Origin: Chiloscyllium plagiosum
Lineage: Eukaryota
Length of the DNA stretch: 64,000 bases
Direction: 5' to 3'
Assembly: GCF_004010195.1 (NCBI RefSeq)
Contig: NC_057719.1
Coordinates: 10,543,466-10,607,465 of the forward strand
Part shown: in pieces, positions 3,244-64,000 of the stretch
How the letters are laid out: each line of letters begins with the position of its first letter
Numbering within the stretch: position 1 is the first letter of the stretch
Translations under genes and position numbers: made by a program
The notes under the pieces: generated by a model
The model's database searches: none
What the model saw: only the letters and a program-made list of their open reading frames with translations
What the model was told of the DNA's origin: nothing

Positions 3244-3769
3244 ATAATGCAGGATGAGATCAGTTTATTAGTGAGAGAAATTGTCAGATCAAAATTCACA
3301 ACATGGAATCAGTTTTGGTGGAACTATGAAGCAGGAGGGGCAATAAAAATTGAAGGGTGTTGTTCATAGGCCACCAAATAGTAGTGACAATGTGGGGCAT
3401 CATATGATTCAGGGAAATGGAGGTGCATATAACAAGTGGAATATGGTAATTGCAGCAGCCTGTAATCTACTAGTTTGGGATTGCATTTGGTATGGTACTG
3501 GTTGGACTGAAGGGCTTGTTTCCATGCTGTATGACCATACAACTCTGAGTATAGATAATTAGTTCTAATGCTTTGAAGGATGCATTTCCGGAATGTATGA
3601 AACATAATTCTCTAGAGCGGTATGTTGAGGAACCAACTAATGAAAAGCTATTTTATATTTAATATTGTGCAGTGTGAAAGGGCTGATTAAGAATTTTAAG
3701 TAAAGGAGCTTTTAGTGAAGAGTGACCACAACATGATTGAAGTATATCTTAATTTTAAAAGTACTACAA

Positions 3770-15381: not shown

Positions 15382-15881
15382 NNNNNNNNNNNNNNNNNNN
15401 NNNNNNNNNNNNNNNNNNNNNNNNNNNNNNNNNNNNNNNNNNNNNNNNNNNNNNNNNNNNNNNNNNNNNNNNNNNNNNNNNNNNNNNNNNNNNNNNNNNN
15501 NNNNNNNNNNNNNNNNNNNNNNNNNNNNNNNNNNNNNNNNNNNNNNNNNNNNNNNNNNNNNNNNNNNNNNNNNNNNNNNNNNNNNNNNNNNNNNNNNNNN
15601 NNNNNNNNNNNNNNNNNNNNNNNNNNNNNNNNNNNNNNNNNNNNNNNNNNNNNNNNNNNNNNNNNNNNNNNNNNNNNNNNNNNNNNNNNNNNNNNNNNNN
15701 NNNNNNNNNNNNNNNNNNNNNNNNNNNNNNNNNNNNNNNNNNNNNNNNNNNNNNNNNNNNNNNNNNNNNNNNNNNNNNNNNNNNNNNNNNNNNNNNNNNN
15801 NNNNNNNNNNNNNNNNNNNNNNNNNNNNNNNNNNNNNNNNNNNNNNNNNNNNNNNNNNNNNNNNNNNNNNNNNNNNNNNNN
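15382..15881. other. Assembly gap (500 N)
   Basis: Run of N. Confidence 1.
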
Positions 15882-22210: not shown

Positions 22211-22585
22211 ATTAGAGTGGGGCTGGAAAAGCACCCAGCAGGTCAGGCAGCATCCGAGGAGCAGGAAAATCAATGTTTTGGGCAAAAGCCCTTCATCAGG
22301 AATAGAGGCAGGAAGCCTCCAGGGTGGAGAGATAAATGGTGGTGTGGGGCTGGGGAGAAGGTAGCAAAGAGTACAATAGGTGAATGGTTTAGATCAGAGT
22401 GGTGCTTGAAAAGCACAGCAGGTCAGGCAGCATCCGAGGCCCCCCCAGCTCTACCCCCACCCATTTATCTTTCCACCCTGGAGCTCCCTGCCTCTATTCC
22501 TGATGAAGAGCTTTTGCCCGTAACGTCGATTTTCTTGTTCCTCGGATGCTGCCTGACCTGCTGTGCTTTTCCAGCACCACTCTGT
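22211..22585. mobile_element. Inverted PLE terminal repeats with degenerate hammerheads
   Basis: Minus arm 22211-22380, partial second minus arm 22390-22439, plus arm 22440-22585 (cctgatgaagagcttttgcccgtaacgtc). Confidence 0.82.
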
Positions 22586-23209
22586 TCTAAAAATATGATT
22601 ACCCGTTCACCAAGTGAAGGCCTGAGCACGGAAAAAAGGTGAATAAATTTCAATGACTCAACACCAAATCACAACCATGTCCCATGATCCACTTAACTCT
22701 GACAAGACAAACACATAAGATTCATCGACCGCAGCGATGGTGGTGGTGGTGGGGGTGTGGGTTGGTGTGGAGATCGTGATAATTAATCAACATACAACCA
22801 TGCAGGAGCATTCAGGAATGAATTACGTGTGGTTCGTAGGGCTAAAGGGATGAAAGGTTATGGGGACAAAGTGGGAACCGGGCCTGAGTGGGATGATCAG
22901 CCATGATCATATCAAATGGTGGAGCAGGCTCAGAAGGCTGAATGGCCTATGCCTGCTCCAGTTTTCAACAGTTCTCTGTTTCTATTCACAGATCACTGTA
23001 CCTGAAAGATAAGGAGATGGAGGTAAAACTGTTCTGTACAATGTAAATACCAAGGCTGTAGGGTTCTAGCAGAGAGGTTACTGATAACATGGTAGCATTG
23101 CTGTGGTCAGGAAAGAGGAGGAAAAGAATGAATGACAATAAACCAGACAATGAACCACAGGGGGCTGCCATTGTGGATGAAGCCATGGACAAGGCTCTCC
23201 AGTAAATGT

Positions 23210-29493: not shown

Positions 29494-31456
29494 TCATAGA
29501 GTCACAGAGTCATAGAGATGTACAGCACGGAAACAGACCCTTTGGTCCACCCTGCCCATGCCGACCAGATATCCCAACCCAATCTAGTCCCACCTGCCAG
29601 CACCCGGCCCATACCCCTCCAAACTGTTCCTATTCACACACCCATCCAAATGCCTCTTAAATGTTGCAAATGTACCAGCCTCTACCACATCCTCTGGCAG
29701 CTCATTCCACAGACGTACCACCTTCTGTGAGAAAACGTTGCCCTTTAGGTCTCTTTTATATCTTTGCCCTCTCACCCTAAACCTATGCCCTCTAGTTCTG
29801 GACTCCACGATCCCAGGGAAAAGACTTTGTCTATTTATCCTATCCATGCTCCTCATAATTTTGTAAAACTCCATAAGGTCACCCCTCAGCCTCTGAAGCT
29901 CCAGGGAAAACAGCCCCAGCCTGTTCAGCCTCTCCCTGTAGCTCAAATCCTCCAACCCTGGCAACATCATTGTAAATCTTTTCTGAACCCTTTCAAGTTT
30001 CACAACATCCAAGTTTCACAATATTCCAACAGTGGCCTAACCAATATCCTGTACAGCCACAACATGACCTCCCAACACCTGTACTCAATACTCTGACCAA
30101 TAAAGGAAAGCATACCAAATGCCTTCTTCACTATCCTATCTACCTGCAACTCCACTTTCAAGGAGCTATGAACCTGCACTCCAAGGTCTCTTTGTTCAGC
30201 AACACTCCCTAGGATCTTACCATTAAGTGTATAAGTCCTGCTAAGATTTGAAATGTAGCACCTCGCATTTATCTGAATTAACCTCCATCTGCCACTTCTC
30301 AGCCCATTGGCCCGTCTGGTCCAGATCCTGTTGTAATCTGAGGTAACCCTCTTCGCTGTNNNNNNNNNNNNNNNNNNNNNNNNNNNNNNNNNNNNNNNNN
30401 NNNNNNNNNNNNNNNNNNNNNNNNNNNNNNNNNNNNNNNNNNNNNNNNNNNNNNNNNNNNNNNNNNNNNNNNNNNNNNNNNNNNNNNNNNNNNNNNNNNN
30501 NNNNNNNNNNNNNNNNNNNNNNNNNNNNNNNNNNNNNNNNNNNNNNNNNNNNNNNNNNNNNNNNNNNNNNNNNNNNNNNNNNNNNNNNNNNNNNNNNNNN
30601 NNNNNNNNNNNNNNNNNNNNNNNNNNNNNNNNNNNNNNNNNNNNNNNNNNNNNNNNNNNNNNNNNNNNNNNNNNNNNNNNNNNNNNNNNNNNNNNNNNNN
30701 NNNNNNNNNNNNNNNNNNNNNNNNNNNNNNNNNNNNNNNNNNNNNNNNNNNNNNNNNNNNNNNNNNNNNNNNNNNNNNNNNNNNNNNNNNNNNNNNNNNN
30801 NNNNNNNNNNNNNNNNNNNNNNNNNNNNNNNNNNNNNNNNNNNNNNNNNNNNNNNNNNNNNNNNNNNNNNNNNNNNNNNNNNNNNNNNNNNNNNNNNNNN
30901 NNNNNNNNNNNNNNNNNNNNNNNNNNNNNNNNNNNNNNNNNNNNNNNNNNNNNNNNNNNNNNNNNNNNNNNNNNNNNNNNNNNNNNNNNNNNNNNNNNNN
31001 NNNNNNNNNNNNNNNNNNNNNNNNNNNNNNNNNNNNNNNNNNNNNNNNNNNNNNNNNNNNNNNNNNNNNNNNNNNNNNNNNNNNNNNNNNNNNNNNNNNN
31101 NNNNNNNNNNNNNNNNNNNNNNNNNNNNNNNNNNNNNNNNNNNNNNNNNNNNNNNNNNNNNNNNNNNNNNNNNNNNNNTTCCCTTTCACCCTGACAGGAA
31201 TATACTTTTTCTGGATTCTTGTTATCTCATTTCTGAAGGCTTCCCATTTTCCAACCGTCCCTTTACTTGCGAACAACTGCCTCTAATCAGCTTTCGAAAG
31301 TTCTTGCCTAATACCGTCAAAAGTGGCCTTTCTCTAATTTAGCACTTCAACTTTTAGATCTATCCTTTTCCATCACTATTTTAAAACGAATAGAATTATG
31401 GTCGCTGGCCCCAAAGTGCTCCCCCACTGACACCTCAGTCACCTGCCCTGCCTTAT
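29494..31456 (-). mobile_element. CR1 LINE spanning the assembly gap
   Basis: ORF 29584-30012 LERVQKRFT...RLRGDL...RTRGHRF; CTATGACT tail. Confidence 0.9.
30360..31178. other. Assembly gap
   Basis: Run of N. Confidence 1.
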
Positions 31457-33632: not shown

Positions 33633-33767
33633 AGATTTAGATTTTATTGTCACATATACTCGAGTACAGGAGCACAGTGAATAGTACACATGGCACCATC
33701 TCAGGTACAAAAAACCTTATGTACAATGTACTAAAAAAACAAAGTTAAAGTATGTTTGCTGTGTTTG

Positions 33768-35975
33768 GTTGTGTACATTTTGGAAAGGCAAATCAGGACA
33801 GGCCTTATACACTTGGTAAGGTCCTGGGCAGTATTGCTGAACAAAGAGAACTTAGAGTGCAGATTCATAGTTCCTTGAAAGTAGAGTCACAGGTAAATAG
33901 GATAGTGAAAAAGGTGTTTGGTATGCTTTCCTTTATTGTTCAGTGCACTGAGTATAGGGGTTGGGAGGTCATGTTGCGGCTGTACAGGATATTAGTTAGA
34001 CCGCTTTTAGAATATTGTGTACAATTCTGGCCTCCATTCTATTCGAAGGATGTTGTGAAATTTGAAAGTGTTCAGAAAAAGATTTACAAGGATGTTGCTG
34101 GGTTGGAGAGTTTTAGCTATAGGGAGAGGCTGAATGGGCTGGGGCTGTTTTCCCTGGAGTATCGGAGGTTGAGGCGTGACCTTATAGAGGTTTATAAAAT
34201 CATGAGGGGCATGGATAGGGCAAACAGACAAGGTCTTTTCCCTGGGGTAGGGGAGTCCAGGACTAGAGGGCATAGATTTAGGGTGAGAGGGGAAAGATAT
34301 AAAAGAGACCTAAGGGGCAACTTTTTCACACAGAGCATGGTGTGTGTTTGGAATGAGCTGCCAGAGGAAGTAGCAGAGGCTGGAACAATTGCAATATTTA
34401 AAGGTTAAAAATCACACAGCACCAGGTTATCGGCCAAAAGGCTTATTTCGAAGGGGCAACTTTTTCATGCAGAGGGTGGTATGTGTATGGAATGAACTTC
34501 CAGAGGAAGTGGTGGAGGTGAGTATAATTGCAACATTTAACACCATAAGACCATAAGACATAGGAGTGAGTGTAAGGCCATTTGGCCCATCGAGTCCACT
34601 CCGCCATTCAATCATGGCTGATGGACATTTCAACTTATCTGCACTCTTCCCGTATCCCTTAATTTGTTGCTGAGATTAAGAATTTATCAATCTCTGCCTT
34701 GAAGACATTTAACGTCCCGGCCTCCACTGCACTCCATGGCAATGAATTCCATAGGCCCGCCGCTCTCTGGCTGAAGAAATGTCTCCTCATTTCCATTCTG
34801 AATTGACCCCACTAATTCTCAGGCTATGGCCTTGGGTCCTACTATCCCCGCTTGATGGAAACAAATTCCCACCATCCACTCTTTCTAAGCCATGCATTAT
34901 CTTGTAAGTTTCTATTAGATCTCCCCTCAACCTTCTGAACTCTAGTGAATACAATCCCAGGATCCTCAGCTGTTCATCATATGTTAGGCCTACCATTCCA
35001 GGGATCATCCGTGTGAATCTCCACTGGACATACTCCAGTGCCAGTATGTCCTTCCTGAGGTGTGGGGTCCAAAACTGGATACAATATTCTAAATGGGGCC
35101 TAACCAGAGCTTTATAAAATCTCAGTAGTACATCGCTTCTTTTACATTCTAACCTTCTTGAGATAAATGACAACATTACATTTGCTTTGTTAACCATAGA
35201 CGCAACCTGCAAGACAGCCTTTACAGAATTCTGGACGAGCGATCCCAGATCCCTTTGTACATTGGCTTTATGAATTTTCTCACCGTTTAGAAAATAGTCC
35301 ATGCCTGTATTCTTTTTTCCGAGGTGCAAGACATTGCATTTGCTCACATTGAATTTCATCAGCCATTTCCTGGACCACTCTCTTAAACTGTCTAAATCTT
35401 TCTGCAGCCTCCCCACCTCCTCAGAACTACCTGCCTGTCCACCTAACTTCGTACCATCGGCAAACTTCGCCAGAATGCCCCCAGTCCCTTCATCCAGAAC
35501 ATTAATATATAAAGTGAACTTCATTTAAAAGGCATCTGTATGGATATATGAGTAGGAAGGGTTTGGAGGGATGTGGGCCAGGTGTTGACAAGTGGGACTA
35601 GATTGGGTTGGGCTATCTGGTCGGCATGGATGCGTTGGACCGAAGGGTCTGTTTCTGTGCTGTATATCTCTATGACTGTATGACTCTACTGGCTACCTAA
35701 TGAAGGAGCAGCGCTCTGAATGCTAGTACTTCCAAATAAACCTGTTGGACTATAACCTGGTGTTGTGTGATTTTTAACTTTGTCCACCCTAGTCCAACAC
35801 CAGCACCTCCACTTCATTTAAAAGACACCTGGATGGGTATATGAATAGCAAAGGTTCAGAGGGAAATGAGCCAAGTGCTGGCAAATGGGATTAGATTAAT
35901 TTAGGATATCTGGTCTGCATGGACAAGTTGGGTTAGTTTCTGTGCTGTATATCTCTATGACTCTTTAACTCTATA
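33768..35975 (+). mobile_element. Nested CR1 / PLE-terminus / CR1 / CR1 cluster
   Basis: ORF 33752-34408 (CR1 RT C-terminus); inner minus CR1 34541-35521 (ORF 34787-35524, KFADGTK); duplicated CR1 3' segments. Confidence 0.85.
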
Positions 35976-36984
35976 TGTATCACGTGTTTATCTAAATGCA
36001 CTGTGCGTCTCTGTGCTTGGTTGTGGATGTGAGTCTGTGGAGGCTTTTAGGTTGTAATGAAGTGTGTTCAATGTGTATGTGCTGGTATGTTGAGGGTGCG
36101 TTTCTTAATGTGACTGATGTCTCAGTGGAAAGTGTGTTTGTAGATATGCATGTGTTACTATGTATGTATGTAAGTGTGGGTACTCATGTATATATATAGT
36201 ACACGTGGGCGTATCTACGTATGTGCCTGTATAAGCAGATGCAAAGTATTTCCATTGTTATTATAAATGAGGTATTCTAAAGGAGACAACACTAAACATA
36301 GATCTTGCTGAAACAGCGTGAAGAAAAATAAAAACATTGGTCCTGACCATACTGCTTTCAAAATAGCACTACGTTTATTTACCTGCTGCTATGAAACTGT
36401 CCAACAGAAGAAACAGGGTGGTTCCTGACAGCACCATTAACATATGAATCCATCAATACAGCGGTTCAAGAAGGCAGCTCACCACCACCCTCTGAAGGGC
36501 AATTAGGGACAGACAATAAATGCTGGCTCAGCTAGGGACGTCCAAATCCCATGAGTGGTGAGAAAATAAATGAAATCATTCCTGCACCTGAATTAGCAAA
36601 ATAAATGCAACAATTTGTACAATGTACTAAAAAAACAAAGTTAAAGTATGTTTGCTGTGTTTGGTTGTGTACATTTTGGAAAGGCAAATCAGGGCTCTTT
36701 GACTATTAATCCCGAAACGCAGGTAATGTTCTGAGGTTCGAATCTCACCACCGCAGATAATTGAATTCAATAAAATATGCTTGAAATTAAAAATCTAATG
36801 ATAACTGTGGTTTCATGGTCGATTGTAGGAAACATCCATCAGGTTCATTAATGATGCCACCCGGTCTGATCTACATGTGACTGCAGCACCACATGAATGT
36901 GCTTGACTCTCAGCTGCCCTCTGAAATGGCTTGGTCCTCAGATTGTATCAATCGCTATGAAATCCCAAGAAAGAAATGAAACTG

Positions 36985-44094: not shown

Positions 44095-45420
44095 TAAAAC
44101 ACAAAGAACTGAAGATGCTGGGTATCAGAAACACAAACAGAAATTTCTGGAATAACTCAGCAGGTCTGGCAGCATCTGTGGAGAGAAAGCAGAGCTAACA
44201 TTTCGAGTCCACTGACCCTTCTTCAGAACTGTTGAAGCAAGGAAAGGGTTGCTGTGTATGCTGATAATGGGGTGGGGGTGAGGGGGAGGAAAAAAATGAT
44301 AGGTGGAGATGGAGCCCAGAGACAGAGAAAACAGTTGGATGGACAAAGGAATGGTAAAGGTCAGCCTGGGAGAATGAATAGCTGCTAATGGGGGCCATTA
44401 GTGATAGGGTTAGGGTTAGGGTTCGGTTTAGGATTAGAGTTAGGGTTAGGGTTAGGGATTAGAGTTAGGGTTAGAGTTAGGGTTAGGGTTAGGGTTAGGG
44501 TTAGGGTTAGGGTTAGAGTTCGGGTTAGAGTTAGGGTTAGGGCTAGAGTTAGGGTTAGGGTTAGAGTTTGGGTTAGAGTTAGTGTTAGGGTTAGTGCTAG
44601 AGTTAAGGTTAGGGTTAGAGTTTGGGTTAGAGTTAGGGTTAGAGTTACGGTTAGAGCTAGGGTTAGGGTTAGAGTTATGGTTTAGAGTTAGGATTAGGGA
44701 TCGGGTTAGGGTTAGAGATAGCTGACAATGTGTTGATTTTGTTAGCTAGCCCATGCTGCTACCAAAAACAGAAGTCTTGTGTGGGGATCGGAAGAGAACA
44801 TGGGGGAAGGTGCTCAGGCCCTAAAATTTCAAGTCATGAAGGTTATTTGGTCCCTCAGCTGAAAATGCGATACTGTTCTTCCAGCTTGAATTAAGCTTCA
44901 CTGGAGCACTGTAGGAAACCCGAGACAGAGATGTTAGCCAGGGAACGGGATAGTGTGTTGAAGTAGCAGGCAATAGGAATTTCAGGGTCAGTCTTGCTGA
45001 CAGAATGGAGGTGTTATGTGAAGCTGTCACCCCATTTGTCTCTCCAATGTAGAGGAGACCACGTTATGTGCAGTGACTACAATAGTCTAGCTCGTGGGAA
45101 ATGCAGGCAAATCACTGCTTCACCTGGAAGGTGTGTCTGGGGCATTGATACTGAGGAGGCAGGAAGTAAACAGGTTGGTGTCAGACCTTCTGCGATCGCA
45201 GGGGAAGGTGCCATGGGGCTGTGGGTTGATGTTGGGAGTGGAAGAGGAGTTGACCAAGCCGTCATGGAGGGTACAGTCCCTGTGCAAGGCTGACAAGGGA
45301 GGGGAGGGAAGGGACGTACATGTCTAGTGATAGCAATCCACAAGAGATGGTAGAAATGGCAGCTAATGATTATTTTAATGTGGATGCAGGTGGGATGGTG
45401 GGTGAGGACAAGGGGGGGGG
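44095..45420 (-). mobile_element. Neptune-type PLE (family B) 3' portion
   Basis: Terminus with gttctgaagaagggtcagtggactcgaaatgtt; PLVLTHHPT.IHI..II.CHF.HL linker. Confidence 0.75.
44405..44716 (+). repeat. Interstitial telomeric array (TTAGGG)n with TTAGAG variants, ~52 hexamers
   Basis: Read directly from the sequence. Confidence 0.97.
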
Positions 45421-49115: not shown

Positions 49116-49344
49116 CTATTCCTGATATTCTTTGGCAAAATAAAGATGTAGAGGGTAATGAAAGAAAAGGCTTGCATTTACTTGGTGCGTTACGACATCT
49201 TTCAGAATGGCACAGTTGTCCACGTCTTGAAGTTCAGGACTGACATTGTGTCGACAAATACACGAGCCTTGCCCAATGCACAGCAAGATCCTACAATCAG
49301 TCATGAGATTCTTTGTTTCTTTGCCAGTCATGCTAATTGAGAGG

Positions 49345-49562
49345 AGAAAGTGAGGACTGCAGATGCTGGAAATCAGAGCTGAAAATGTGTTGCTGGAAAA
49401 GCACAGCAGGTCAGACAGCATCCAAGGAGCAGTGGAATCGATGTTTCGGGCATGAGCCCTTCTGAAGAATTCCTGAAGAAGGGCTCATGCCCGAAACGTC
49501 GATTCTACTGCTCCTTGGATGCTGCCTGACCCGCTGCGCTTTTCCAGCAACACATTTTCAGC
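49345..49562. mobile_element. Palindromic PLE-terminus insertion with 17-bp TSD
   Basis: TSD tcatgctaattgagagg at 49328-49344 and 49563-49579; fold centre gaa|ttc at 49469/49470. Confidence 0.9.
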
Positions 49563-49649
49563 TCATGCTAATTGAGAGGGCAAGATGATCAACAAGCCCC
49601 AGGGAGCTTCTCTGAATCGCATTCTGGAATCTGAACTGTTAGACTAGGA

Positions 49650-50444: not shown

Positions 50445-50510
50445 CTAACAAACAGAACTCAGTGTGAGATAAGCAGAGTTTGAGGTGAAGTGAGGGAGCA
50501 TCCTACATGG

Positions 50511-50726
50511 AGAAAGTGAGGTCTGCAGACGCTGGAGATCAAAGCTGAAACTTTATTGCTGGAACAGCACAGCAGGTCAGGCAGCATCTAGGGAACAGAA
50601 GATTCGACGTTTCGGGCACATGCCCTTCTTCAGGAATTCCTGAAGAAGGGCATGTGCCCGAAACGTCGAATCTTCTGTTCCCTAGATGCTGCCTGACCTG
50701 CTGTGCTGTTCCAGCAATAAAGTTTC
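50511..50726. mobile_element. Perfect palindromic PLE-terminus insertion with 14-bp TSD
   Basis: TSD agcatcctacatgg at 50497-50510 and 50727-50740; perfect inverted repeat 50544-50729. Confidence 0.92.
50636..50671 (+). ncRNA. Minimal hammerhead motif, mirrored on the minus strand at 50602-50637
   Basis: AUUC CUGAAGA A GGGC-AUGU-GCCC GAAA CG UC^GAAU; 4-bp stem I, 4-bp stem II. Confidence 0.72.
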
Positions 50727-51229
50727 AGCATCCTACATGGGTACTGATCCTTTAATGGGATCGAACTAATGATTGACACTCTATGAGATGTGGCACCCTA
50801 TCTTCCACACAGCAGGATCCCACAAACAGCAATGTGACAATGACCAGATGGTTGATTTTGGTGATGTTTTCAGAGAGATAAATACTGGGCAGGAAAATGC
50901 TCTCCACCGAATGAGGAGGATTGGTTCACCAGCCTTTGGCTACAGAGCATATTAATGGGTCTTCAAAGAAGATATGGCAGCTGACTTCTCAGGTAAAGGA
51001 AGACTGAGGGAAGAGCATTAAACAGCCACTTAATGGCACAGAGCTGGAATATTAGTGAAAAGATTTCCTGAAGCTTTTTAAGTACCGCTCATCAGGATGA
51101 ATGCAAGAATGCCAGGTTTCAATCCATCACATCGATTTATACACCAGGAGCAAAGGATGCTGATTGGTTGTCAATTCAACTCTGATTGGCCAAGCATTGC
51201 CATGGAGAAAGCAATGGGGAGCAATAACA

Positions 51230-60511: not shown

Positions 60512-61362
60512 CTGTAAGCATGATTGCCCTTTTTGCAATAAAACAGCAAATTGTCTCTGTCTGCGTAAGCCACATATTTAATCCTGCTCCTACCTTCCAC
60601 TTCTCCTCTGGGATTTTCAATAAAGAAGGTTATTATTTTGTTGGAGAGAAGGTTCAATCAAATGATCCCTGGTTTGGAGGGATTATCTTGTGAGCAAAAG
60701 TTAAACAGGTTGGGACTGTACTCACTGGAGTTTCGAAGGATGAGAGGTGATCTCATTGAAACAAGAAGGATTCTTAAGCAGAGAAACAGGAGCTAGCTGA
60801 TCAGATGAAACACCTACATTCTAGCCTCACTGTACAGGCTACAGCTGAAATGTTTAAAGACCCACGACGCGTGATGAGGCTGTGGCTGTCTAGTGCTGAA
60901 CTGCCTGCAAGGGAACGTTCTGACGGCCAGAGTTTCTCAAGGTCATCAACATCCCCAACGCAAGTGACCTCCGCCCCAACCAGCTCCAGATCCCCTCCTC
61001 ACACGTTGCTCCTTTTATTTACTCAAATGTAACAAAACCACTGTGGAAGCTGGAAATCTGAAAAAAAAAGCAGGGAATGCTGGGGAACCCCTTTGAACCA
61101 TTCTGAAGAAGATATCAGACTCAAAATGTTCACTCCGCTTCCCTCCCCACAGCTATTGCCAGATCTGCTCCAGCATTCCCGATGCCTGTTTGCTCCTTTT
61201 ATCTATTCCATTATCTCCTCCCTCTTCCATGTGGAAACCACCTTAGAGTAGCACAAGAGTAGTTAAAGCATGGAAGGGTTTGCACAGCAATAACAGGGAT
61301 GTGCATTGACATAGCATCGAGTCACAGCAAGAGACAAGGAACCAAATGATAAAAGAGTAAGG

Positions 61363-62042
61363 TGTAGTGATTTCAACAAGGTCAGCCACGTGGAGCTCAT
61401 CGAATATGAGTCACCTGATTGGGGCTGTTAATCTTGGCTAATCAGGGAGCCCTGGCTGACACATAAAAGCAGGACTGTCACACCTGCACACACACAGCAT
61501 GGGTGCTGGGGAAAAAAAAGCACTACCGCAGTTAGGCGGTAGTGTGGGGGTTAAAAAAGAAAAAGAAAAAGAAAAAGAAAAGAAAAAAAGGAAAAAAGAC
61601 AAACAGGAGGGTCAGGGGTTAACAAAATAAACAGGAGTGGCTTGAATAAAAAAAAACAGGAGTGTCACACACAACATGGGTGCTGGGGAAAATATAAGCA
61701 CTACCGCAGTTAGGCGGTAGTGTGGGGGTAATAAGAAAAAAAGAAGCTGGACTATAAGGGCACTGCTTGTCACTGGCCACTCGGGTGCTTCCTCTCTTCC
61801 TGGTGGTGGAAACTCAATAAAGATTCGTGCACCTTGCGTCTTTCACTGTGTCTCACACCCGCACACACACAACATGGGTGCTGGGGAAAAATAAGCACTA
61901 CTGCAGTTATGCGGTAGTGTGGGGGTAATAGAAAAAAAAATTTAAAATAAGAGAAAAAATAAATAAATAAACAGGAGTGTCAGACATCCTGTTCACTCCA
62001 AGAGCTGGCTCTGAGGGAGCTGGATCAGTGTGTGCAAGGACT
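61363..62042 (+). mobile_element. LTR-like host repeat with CCAAT- and TATA-like boxes, split by insertions
   Basis: tgtagtgatt...gattgggg...ctaatcagggag...acataaaagcaggactgtca resumes at aaacaggagtgtcagacatcc (61969). Confidence 0.5.
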
Positions 62043-62267
62043 AAGAAAAAAAGCAGACTGAAAGGGCACTGCTTGTCACTGGCCACTCGGGTGTTTCCTA
62101 TCTTCCTGGTGGTGGAAACTGAATAAAGATCCGTGCACCTTGTGTCTCTCACTGTGTCTCACACCTGCACACACACACACACAACATGGGTGCTGGGGAT
62201 AATAAGCACTACCGCAGTTAGGCGGGAGTGTGGGGGTAAATAAAAGAAGAAAAAAAGAAAAAAAAAC
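61481..62267 (+). mobile_element. Cluster of poly(A)-tailed, variably 5'-truncated copies of one element
   Basis: Four copies of catgggtgctgggg...cactaccgc-agttag-gcggtagtg-tggggg followed by A-rich tails. Confidence 0.75.
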
Positions 62268-62764
62268 AAGACTGTCAGGTAGGATGAAGAAAATCCAGGA
62301 TTCACCAGCTTCCCAGAATTGTTAGAACACAGATTTTGAATGGGGTGGTTCATGTTTATGCAGCAGTCATTCTTGAAATCAGGAATCAAATCCGTTGGAA
62401 GTAATATGTTTTGATTTGGTGTACGGCTGCTGATCTTCATAATCTGAGTGATGGAATCTAAAGTTGCCTAGTTTAACGGGAATTGTAATGGTGAGTGTCA
62501 GAACTTAGCCAAATGGAAGGAGGAAAGGTTAAGAGAGATCTCCTTAATACTTTGTTGCTTTATAACTCTGACAGCTCAATGTTGCACATTCATTGTGAAG
62601 AACGCTAATTCTGAACTGCCAAGTGCTACAAAACTGTCACAATCAGATATCAGGTAATTGCACTTTTTTTCCCAGTTTTATCTGAGCAGGCTGACAAAGC
62701 TGAAAGCTTGAAATGTGATTATTTAAAAAACAACTACAGCTGTAAGATTAACTGAGAGAAGAAG

Positions 62765-64000
62765 ATTGATTGGAATCTCCTTACTGCAAATGGTCTGGAC
62801 GGAGTCGATTTTGTCAGGTGTGTTCAGGAAGGGTTTCTGACTCAACATGTAGATAGGCCGACTAGGGGAGAGGCCATATTGGATTTGATGCTAGGCAATG
62901 AGCCAAGCCAGATGTCAGATATCTCGGTGGGAGAGCATTTCGGTTACAGTGACCACCACTGCCTCACCTTTACCATAGCCATGGAGAGGGATAGGAACAG
63001 GCAATTAAGGAAGGTATTTAATTGGGGGAGGGGAAATTATACTGCTATTAGACAGGAGTTGTGGAGTATGAATTGGGAATAATTGTTCTATGGGAAATGC
63101 ACAACAGAAATGTGGAGACTGTTTAAGGAGCACTTGTTGCGAGTGTTGGATAACTTTGTCCCACTGAGACAGGCAAGAAATGGTAAGGTGAATGAGCTTT
63201 GGATGACAAAAGAAGAGGAGATTCTTGTCAAGAGGAAGAAGGAAGCTTACTTAAGGTTGAGGAAGCAAGGATCTGGCACAGTTTTAGCGGATTACTAGGT
63301 AGTTAGGAAAGAACTCAAAAATGAACTGAGGAGAGCTAGGAGGGGGCGCAAATTAGCCTTGGTGGGAAGGATTAGGGTAAACACAAAGGTGTTCTCCACT
63401 TACATGAGGAATAAAAGAATGAACAGAGAGAGTGTAGGGCTGATCAGGGATAGTGAAGGGAACTTGTGCCTGGAGTCTGAAGAGGTAGGGGAGGCCGTAA
63501 ATGAGTATTTTTGCTTCAGTATTCACGAGAGAGTGTTGATACCTTGTTGATAGAACACCATGGGCCAGGTTAATAGGCTCGATCAGATTGCTATTAAAAA
63601 AGTGGATGTGCTGGAAATTCTGGGAAGCATCAAGATAGATAAGGCCCCAGGGCCAGACCACTTATATCCAAGGTTACTATGGGGAGTGAGGAATGAAATT
63701 GCTGCGCCTCTGGGGATGATCTTTGCATCTTCACTCTCCATGGGAGTAGTACTAGATGATTGGAAAGAGGCAAATGTTGGTTCCTCTGTTCAAGAAAGGA
63801 AAGAGGGAAATCTCTGAGAATTATAGTCCAGTCAGTCTTACGTCAGTGGTAAGCAAGGTACTGGGAAGGATTCTGAGAGATAAAATTTATAACTATTTGG
63901 AAAAACATAGTTTGATTAAGGATAGTTAGCGTAGCTTTGTGAGGGGCAGGTCATGCCTCACAAGTCTTATTGACTTCTTTGAGGATGTGAAGAGACAAAT
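62765..64000 (+). mobile_element. CR1 ORF2 (endonuclease end, linker, RT start), degenerate, running off the window
   Basis: LDLMLGNEP, EHFGYSDH, DKAPGPDHLYPRLL, DDWKEANV, PVSLTSVVSK. Confidence 0.92.

Follow-up and report, generated by a model that had tools for sequence, protein, structure and literature searches.

The locus and its surroundings

The window, i.e., the whole 64-kb stretch of DNA that was analysed, consists of repeat-rich vertebrate DNA with about 43% GC and many dispersed repeats. Close to its 3' end, a cluster of hairpin-carrying, A-tailed copies is embedded in a host repeat (Table 1). From 5' to 3' the segments are the host 5' part, M1, copy 1 with its tail, M2, a stub, M3, a second stub, M4, copy 2 with its tail and M5, followed by copy 3 with its tail, M6, 60 bp of host repeat, an A-run, M7, copy 4 with its tail, M8 and the flank. 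All copies have one orientation, sense to the host repeat.

Table 1. Host repeat pieces, motif copies (M1 to M8) and element copies of the cluster. The register of M5 and M7 is that of our own alignment.
Feature	Position	Strand	Description
Host repeat, 5' part	61363..61466	+	TG start at 61363; degenerate TATA-like box (local CATAAAA) at end
M1	61467..61480	+	C-class: G at letter 3, C at letter 9
Copy 1	61481..61600	+	71 nt, hairpin 61521-61544, then 49-nt A-rich tail
M2	61601..61614	+	G-class, the majority type of the host family
Stub 1, M3 and stub 2	61615..61653	+	interval between M2 and M4
Stub 1	in 61615..61653	+	last few element bases and short tail
M3 (partial)	61629-61639	+	G-class
Stub 2 (putative element piece)	in 61615..61653	+	unassignable 5' letters and A-run
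M4	61654..61667	+	G-class
Copy 2	61668..61743	+	62 nt, hairpin 61699-61722, then tail
M5	61744..61755	+	C-class, shortened; 10/12 letters as in M1, 8/12 as in M6
Copy 3	61756..61968	+	171 nt, hairpin 61896-61919, then 42-nt tail
M6	61969..61982	+	G-class
Host repeat, piece 3' of M6	61983..62042	+	60 bp; remainder of repeat missing at the locus
A-run before M7	62043-62050	+	opens the interval 62043..62061
M7	62051-62061	+	C-class, one base short
Copy 4	62062..62263	+	176 nt, hairpin 62207-62230 with one stem mismatch, then 26-nt tail
M8	62264..62277	+	C at letter 9, A at letter 3; 12/14 letters as in both M1 and M6

The cluster contains no coding sequence (longest stop-free frame 83 aa). In the window, Pfam gave no family at cut-off in 80/80 N-free frames of at least 95 aa and two sub-threshold matches only; this is a weak negative, as evident CR1-type C-terminal fragments were missed as well. 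ARAGORN reported 0 genes in the window.

Several other repeats were observed in the window, among them what we take to be CR1-type LINE fragments, HE1-like SINEs and Penelope-like stubs. A decayed LINE ORF2 piece on the + strand (about 62790-64000), presumably of CR1 type, is unrelated to the cluster. A degenerate TAGGGT array at 44405-44715 (6-bp unit, 51.5 copies, 78% matches) resembles an interstitial telomeric repeat, and an old tandem array lies at 2082-2905 (84-bp unit, about 10 copies, 67% matches). Around LINE fragments, a 78-bp repeat with 100% identity is found at 33720-33797 and 36616-36693, about 2.9 kb apart, and may have arisen by recent duplication, as a target duplication of very great length or through an overlap in the assembly. 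The young inverted repeat 40797-41285/41683-41977 (210 bp at 97.6% and 85 bp at 87%) is probably a Penelope-like insertion of the fold-back kind. One repeat family has left short fold-back stubs at 22214-22591, 49343-49563 and 50509-50729, and two SINE-like copies (59555-59862/59947-60278), 82 nt apart, are inverted with 76% complementarity across 144 nt. Runs of N mark assembly gaps at 15382-15881 and 30360-31178.

For comparison with other copies, 61200-62500 was matched at 85% likeness to three DNA contig sets (organisms A, B and C; runs X1, X9 and X18, where X9 is organism B) and to one poly(A) RNA run (X21).

The copies are truncated 3' ends of a longer element

An earlier note made from the sequence alone had described four copies with the stem cactaccgc/gcggtagtg and an A-rich tail, and this description was borne out. 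The 24-nt hairpin has four matches in the window, all inside the cluster, with two mismatches at 61896 and one at 62207, whereas 0/100 shuffled sequences reached four matches and no shuffle yielded any match. Folding of the 3'-terminal 61 nt gave z-scores of -4.8, -2.9, -3.0 and -1.6 for copies 1 to 4; in copy 4, with the weakest value, the stem is broken by a private change. Neither copy 4 as a whole (226 nt, z 0.15) nor the first 105 nt of copy 3 (z 1.15) or copy 4 (z 0.28) showed unusual structure. The two further stubs and the partial motif at 61629 are also present.

The copies diverge from one another by 2-8% and have three different 5' ends and one common 3' end. The differing 5' ends claimed earlier thus hold for copies 1 and 2 against the others, but copies 3 and 4 start at the identical element base, 61756 and 62062, and not at 61749 and 62043. 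The letters before these two copies, previously counted as element, are instead the degenerate motifs M5 and M7. An alignment of copies 3 and 4 comprises 159 matches, 11 substitutions and 7 gap columns, and both have the minority letter C at 61813/62119, where T makes up 77-97% of the summed contig/read depth.

Other copies of the family continue 5' of 62062 in all four runs (106, 120 and 131 contigs and 378 RNA reads), and 148 RNA reads continue 5' of 61756 with a different, common sequence. The continuation beyond 61756/62062, judged from loose ends of 30 letters each, is one shared sequence unlike the motif. Copies 3 and 4 therefore share a truncation point, and since the family continues 5', all four copies are the 3' ends of a longer element. 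They are 5'-truncated pieces of a very abundant retroposon: the summed depth of element and host repeat reaches 10^5 to 10^6 in the contig sets, a crude measure that gives no copy number, and in X1 the two flanks have single-copy depth (about 21). By eye, an 11-nt arm among the loose-end letters further 5' pairs with 62062-62072 at 10/11 positions, so that the common breakpoint may lie at the loop of a second RNA hairpin.

The loop position 61709 is G in all four local copies, and reads C in 76% of the depth in organism A, in 11% in B and in almost none in C. The family therefore went on spreading after its loop had changed, and the copies of the cluster have the older form. In the roughly 2% of the RNA run X21 that was covered, sense-strand reads on the element were mostly 85-95% alike and none lay on the unique flanks; these are reads of other element copies. 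They say nothing on expression, as oligo-dT priming on A-tails predicts the same picture.

We take the copies to be the 3' UTR ends of an abundant non-LTR retrotransposon, which quite probably belongs to the Tx1 clade. The four copies show 5' truncation with a fixed 3' end and an A-rich tail, which is compatible with Tx1, but this is not diagnostic because it is common to all poly(A) LINEs. A target-site duplication of host sequence is present as well: the motif stands in the empty host and on both sides of the inserts, where the pairing of individual copies with their target duplications is model-dependent. No Rfam family was above noise in 61200-62500 (best E = 3.3), and pattern scans for the element found 0 loci in metagenome (2), viral (1) and genome (1) contig collections.

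The target motif belongs to an LTR-like host repeat

The degenerate motif has five exact matches in the window, all in the cluster. The positions given before were exact for 61467, 61601, 61654 and 61969, but the last one is 62264 and not 62265. The sole other match in the window, at 3329, has one mismatch, with a chance mean of 0.68. M8 is followed by single-copy DNA (depth about 20 in X1 and about 5 in X18 over 62300-62500). That M8 is a chance match is unlikely, as by a chance estimate the 11-nt motif body occurs within two mismatches at only 25/119,900 positions.

It had been a point to check whether the motif is part of the element. Among the joints listed (15 of 851), the joints 61461->61967/61970 occur in all three DNA runs and represent empty host copies with a single motif. 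Since empty host copies carry one motif, it is host sequence and does not belong to the element, a result in favour of the earlier reading. The same joints confirm that the host repeat resumes at 61969, but this resumption ends after about 60 bp (61983-62042), and the 3' part of the repeat is absent.

The 5' part of the host repeat has a high summed depth in the three organisms compared to the single-copy flank. An organism B contig runs unbroken over 61200-61430; the 5' host piece is therefore common to A and B at the locus. Behind 62031, 271, 120 and 254 contigs (X1, X9 and X18) leave with a common continuation containing AATAAA (among 24 of 1993 loose-end rows listed). This signal lies shortly after 62042 in other host copies and is absent at the locus. 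The repeat would fit an LTR: it starts with TG, the motif is immediately preceded by a TATA-like box, and other copies have AATAAA further 3'; these are the LTR features seen, the host 3' end being missing at the locus. A gag-pol internal region of the repeat was not found in the 64-kb window, and we take the repeat to be putatively of Gypsy type. A comparison of the two host halves, made to see if they derive from different copies, gave 9/101 and 3/59 letters deviating from the family majority, which is not significant (p = 0.54; 40 of 309 differences listed).

The earlier placement of the insertions beside the TATA box does not extend to copy 4, which is 80 bp downstream of the motif at 61969 and thus off the TATA site.

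Insertion at other loci

The view of a poly(A)-tailed retro-element that inserts repeatedly, and in the same orientation, at the motif is supported and also applies to other loci. Joints leading from the tail into motif and host were found in 4 (X1), 5 (X18) and 3 (X9) contigs for the best rows (15 of 851 joints listed), where the shorter side measured up to 53 letters (X18 and X9, 53). Other host copies were therefore targeted at the same site. Targeted insertion with target duplication is supported, because the motif belongs to the host and tail-motif-host junctions exist at other loci.

Host-motif junctions recur, as the proposed site specificity would predict, but exclusivity is weakened by non-host flanks and by the depth of the element. 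In at least 65 X18 contigs a median of 255 unrelated letters follows the tail (24 of 1993 loose-end rows listed), and an X1 contig of 909 nt runs about 700 letters off the stretch behind the tail. In every DNA run the summed depth is about 4-5 times higher over the element than over the host repeat, a crude figure and not a copy number. Host and non-host 3' flanks both occur in what was listed (15 of the 851 joints, 24 of the 1993 loose-end rows). The preference for the host site is not exclusive. For target-specific LINEs, a criterion of more than 20% of flanks of one type is given in the part of PMC4494074 consulted.

At the joint 61872->61756, a contig of run X9 (organism B) contains an element end, an A-run, a motif-like stretch and a second copy, which starts 14-15 letters further 5' than copies 3 and 4. 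It is another tandem array with its own breakpoint.

History of the array

We incline to the reading that a poly(A) LINE inserts preferentially at this site and that the local array goes back to about three events, of which two brought in DNA from donor loci. The endonuclease of the element would prefer the 14-bp sequence just after the TATA-like box of the LTR-type repeat. By target-primed reverse transcription, a step borrowed from LINE biology, the bottom strand would be nicked near the A-run of the motif, with priming on poly(A), and the 5' end would be joined through 2-5 nt of microhomology at the motif end; the last three letters of M1 also fit the element. The insertion would duplicate the motif and leave it open to further targeting.

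The motif copies fall into two classes. In host-repeat contigs the letter at 61469 is mostly A and that at 61475 mostly G. From M1 to M8, letter 9 is C, G, G, G, C, G, C and C, and letter 3 tracks letter 9 in 7/8 motifs. Under serial target duplication, motifs that carry a given change should all be adjacent to one another. The minimum number of motif changes is 11 on the best serial (ordered) tree and 8 for two separately ordered classes (M1-M6 alone, 7 versus 5 unconstrained), a gain of only 2-3 steps on 12 columns that rests on the register of M5 and M7. With two classes no parallel changes are left. The motif is indeed duplicated, as had been claimed, but a regeneration of the target in each round as the full history is weakened because the motif alleles are interleaved.

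That the local array arose by about three events at a C-class motif (copies M1, M5, M7 and M8), and not by six independent insertions, therefore seems to us somewhat probable. C-class motifs enclose each of three inserts (block I, block II and copy 4), and an A-run closes each of them. Block I (61481-61743) comprises copies 1 and 2, the stubs and three G-class motifs; block II (61756-62050) comprises copy 3, one G-class motif, 60 bp of host and the A-run. Each block would come from an array at another locus, imported as read-through RNA (3' transduction) or via gene conversion, and copy 4 would be a plain insertion. Either block has the form of a single insert, opening with a truncated 5' end after one C-class motif and closing with an A-run before the next. 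With two sources, the resumption of the host for 60 bp and its subsequent stop are explained, and the host 3' part would have been lost exactly at the motif end, as an endonuclease-started deletion would leave it. In L1 3' transduction, read-through RNA brings the 3' flank along to another site, where new target duplications enclose it. Blocks I and II have a comparable shape, with the difference that the flank carried here would consist of earlier target copies and host LTR DNA from a putative donor. RNA-level transduction and DNA-level conversion are indistinguishable from one locus. Against an import of blocks speak M8, which is intermediate between the classes, and the end of block II, which lies 11 nt upstream of the host AATAAA and has no canonical poly(A) site; a donor array for either block was not seen in the contig listings.

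The presence of a motif after nearly every tail and of the same junction at other loci would also follow if a family dedicated to the LTR site had inserted serially, six or more times independently, with the target regenerated each time and the allele differences arising as later mutations. We regard this as unlikely: the same two changes would have to occur in parallel in non-adjacent motifs (11 versus 8 steps), the distance of 80 bp to copy 4, the lost host 3' part and the common breakpoint are not explained, and the many non-host 3' flanks (at least 65 X18 contigs; the 909-nt X1 contig) disagree with a dedicated family.

One or two true insertions could have been followed by local DNA-level events, namely a tandem duplication of the unit of copies 3 and 4, unequal conversion and a deletion of the host 3' part. 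The breakpoint and minority letter common to copies 3 and 4 fit a local duplication equally well, and both copies have the same 12-nt A-rich string upstream, which within the window occurs only at 61732 and 62042. However, this match needs a gap of 3-4 nt to keep the motif register, the tails (42 versus 26 nt), 3' motifs and 3' flanks of the two copies differ, and copies 1 and 2 have other breakpoints. In addition, host sequence would be expected after copy 4, where single-copy DNA was found. Such a history is rather improbable.

It is very improbable that the copies are the split-direct-repeat ends of an Ngaro/DIRS tyrosine-recombinase retrotransposon, or a Penelope-like element, with the motif as their own junction. 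The succession of copies 2 and 3 looks like a B-A-B repeat layout, and AATAAA is present in the long copies, but the motif is native to the empty host repeat, the upstream element letters are unlike it, and the tail length varies; the Rfam search, likewise, is at odds with these elements (best E = 3.3). Ngaro/DIRS elements have split direct repeats with the motif inside the element and no target duplication, and this layout does not apply here. For Penelope-like elements, neither an Rfam match (hammerhead) in 61200-62500 nor similarity to other repeats of the window was found; this search covered 61200-62500 only, and a hammerhead further 5' is possible.

A collapsed-repeat assembly artefact deserves hardly any credence, for although no listed contig spans the whole stretch and 61546-61599 and 62157-62274 were skipped as repeats, the copies are 2-8% apart, the X1 flanks are single-copy and an organism B contig crosses copy 2, M5 and copy 3 (61665-61785) at single-copy-like depth (10.3 versus 9.4). 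Together with the common 5' host piece, this contig indicates that the array is real and probably older than the split of A and B.

Starting from the favoured reading of about three events with imported blocks, a further step can be considered with much reservation: the stacks themselves might be mobile, as a self-seeding, ORF-less 'array retroposon' on a borrowed LTR promoter that is re-inserted whole. With the target situated directly 3' of the TATA box and every copy in sense, stubs that lack a promoter of their own might be transcribed, as whole stacks, from the LTR promoter. Recognition of the 3' hairpin and poly(A) by the LINE machinery would then lead to re-insertion of the stacks at new target sites, together with old target copies and LTR DNA, and the landing sites would thereby be multiplied. 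Blocks I and II would then be two such events. This possibility we hold to be doubtful.

Comparison with known systems

The locus would add one more case to a targeting habit known from frogs and crocodilians. A 14-bp endonuclease preference combined with RNA-templated insertion could be of some interest for targeted gene delivery, given a full-length element. A point not found in the papers examined is that target-motif alleles can reveal the history of an array; an array need not record its insertions faithfully in series and might move in blocks. Should donors be found, the locus would be a clear example of retrotransposition at the level of arrays, with a borrowed promoter as its driver. 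Among titles and abstract beginnings, with Repbase, Dfam and subscription journals outside the scope, no report was found of a shark Tx1 family targeting an LTR, or of Tx1 transduction.

In the excerpts of the literature used here, Tx1, R1 and early-branched clades are named as the main target-specific groups and tandem Utopia insertions are noted (PMC4640811), and 3' stem-loops are noted in stringent LINEs and SINEs (PMC3747384). By analogy, the shark element would work like these target-preferring LINEs, and membership in Tx1 is likely. In Xenopus laevis, the APE-type endonuclease of Tx1L, which resides in Tx1D, nicks one site in another transposon (PMC1950540; PMC4494074). Tx1L is described there as stringent, whereas the shark element has many non-host flanks. 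A graded specificity is reported for SINEU-3, -1 and -2, with 90%, 23% and 13% of copies, respectively (excerpt of PMC4494074).

The crocodilian Tx1-clade LINEs Tx1-8_Crp and Tx1-4_AMi prefer LTR retrotransposons according to the same source (PMC4494074). The shark element is like them in having an LTR-like repeat as preferred host, its own clade being only probable. Closest in layout, as far as the excerpt goes, are SINEU-3 and Tx1-Mar in Mariner-N4_AMi, whose tandem insertions sandwich a 16-bp TSD inside another transposon, and for which transcription from the flanking host transposon has already been proposed (PMC4494074). SINEU-3 and the shark locus have in common tandem copies around a target duplication inside another transposon. 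However, in the part of that paper used here the host of SINEU-3 is a DNA transposon and many copies are in opposite orientation, whereas the shark locus combines an LTR-like host and sense copies with motifs in two interleaved allele classes.
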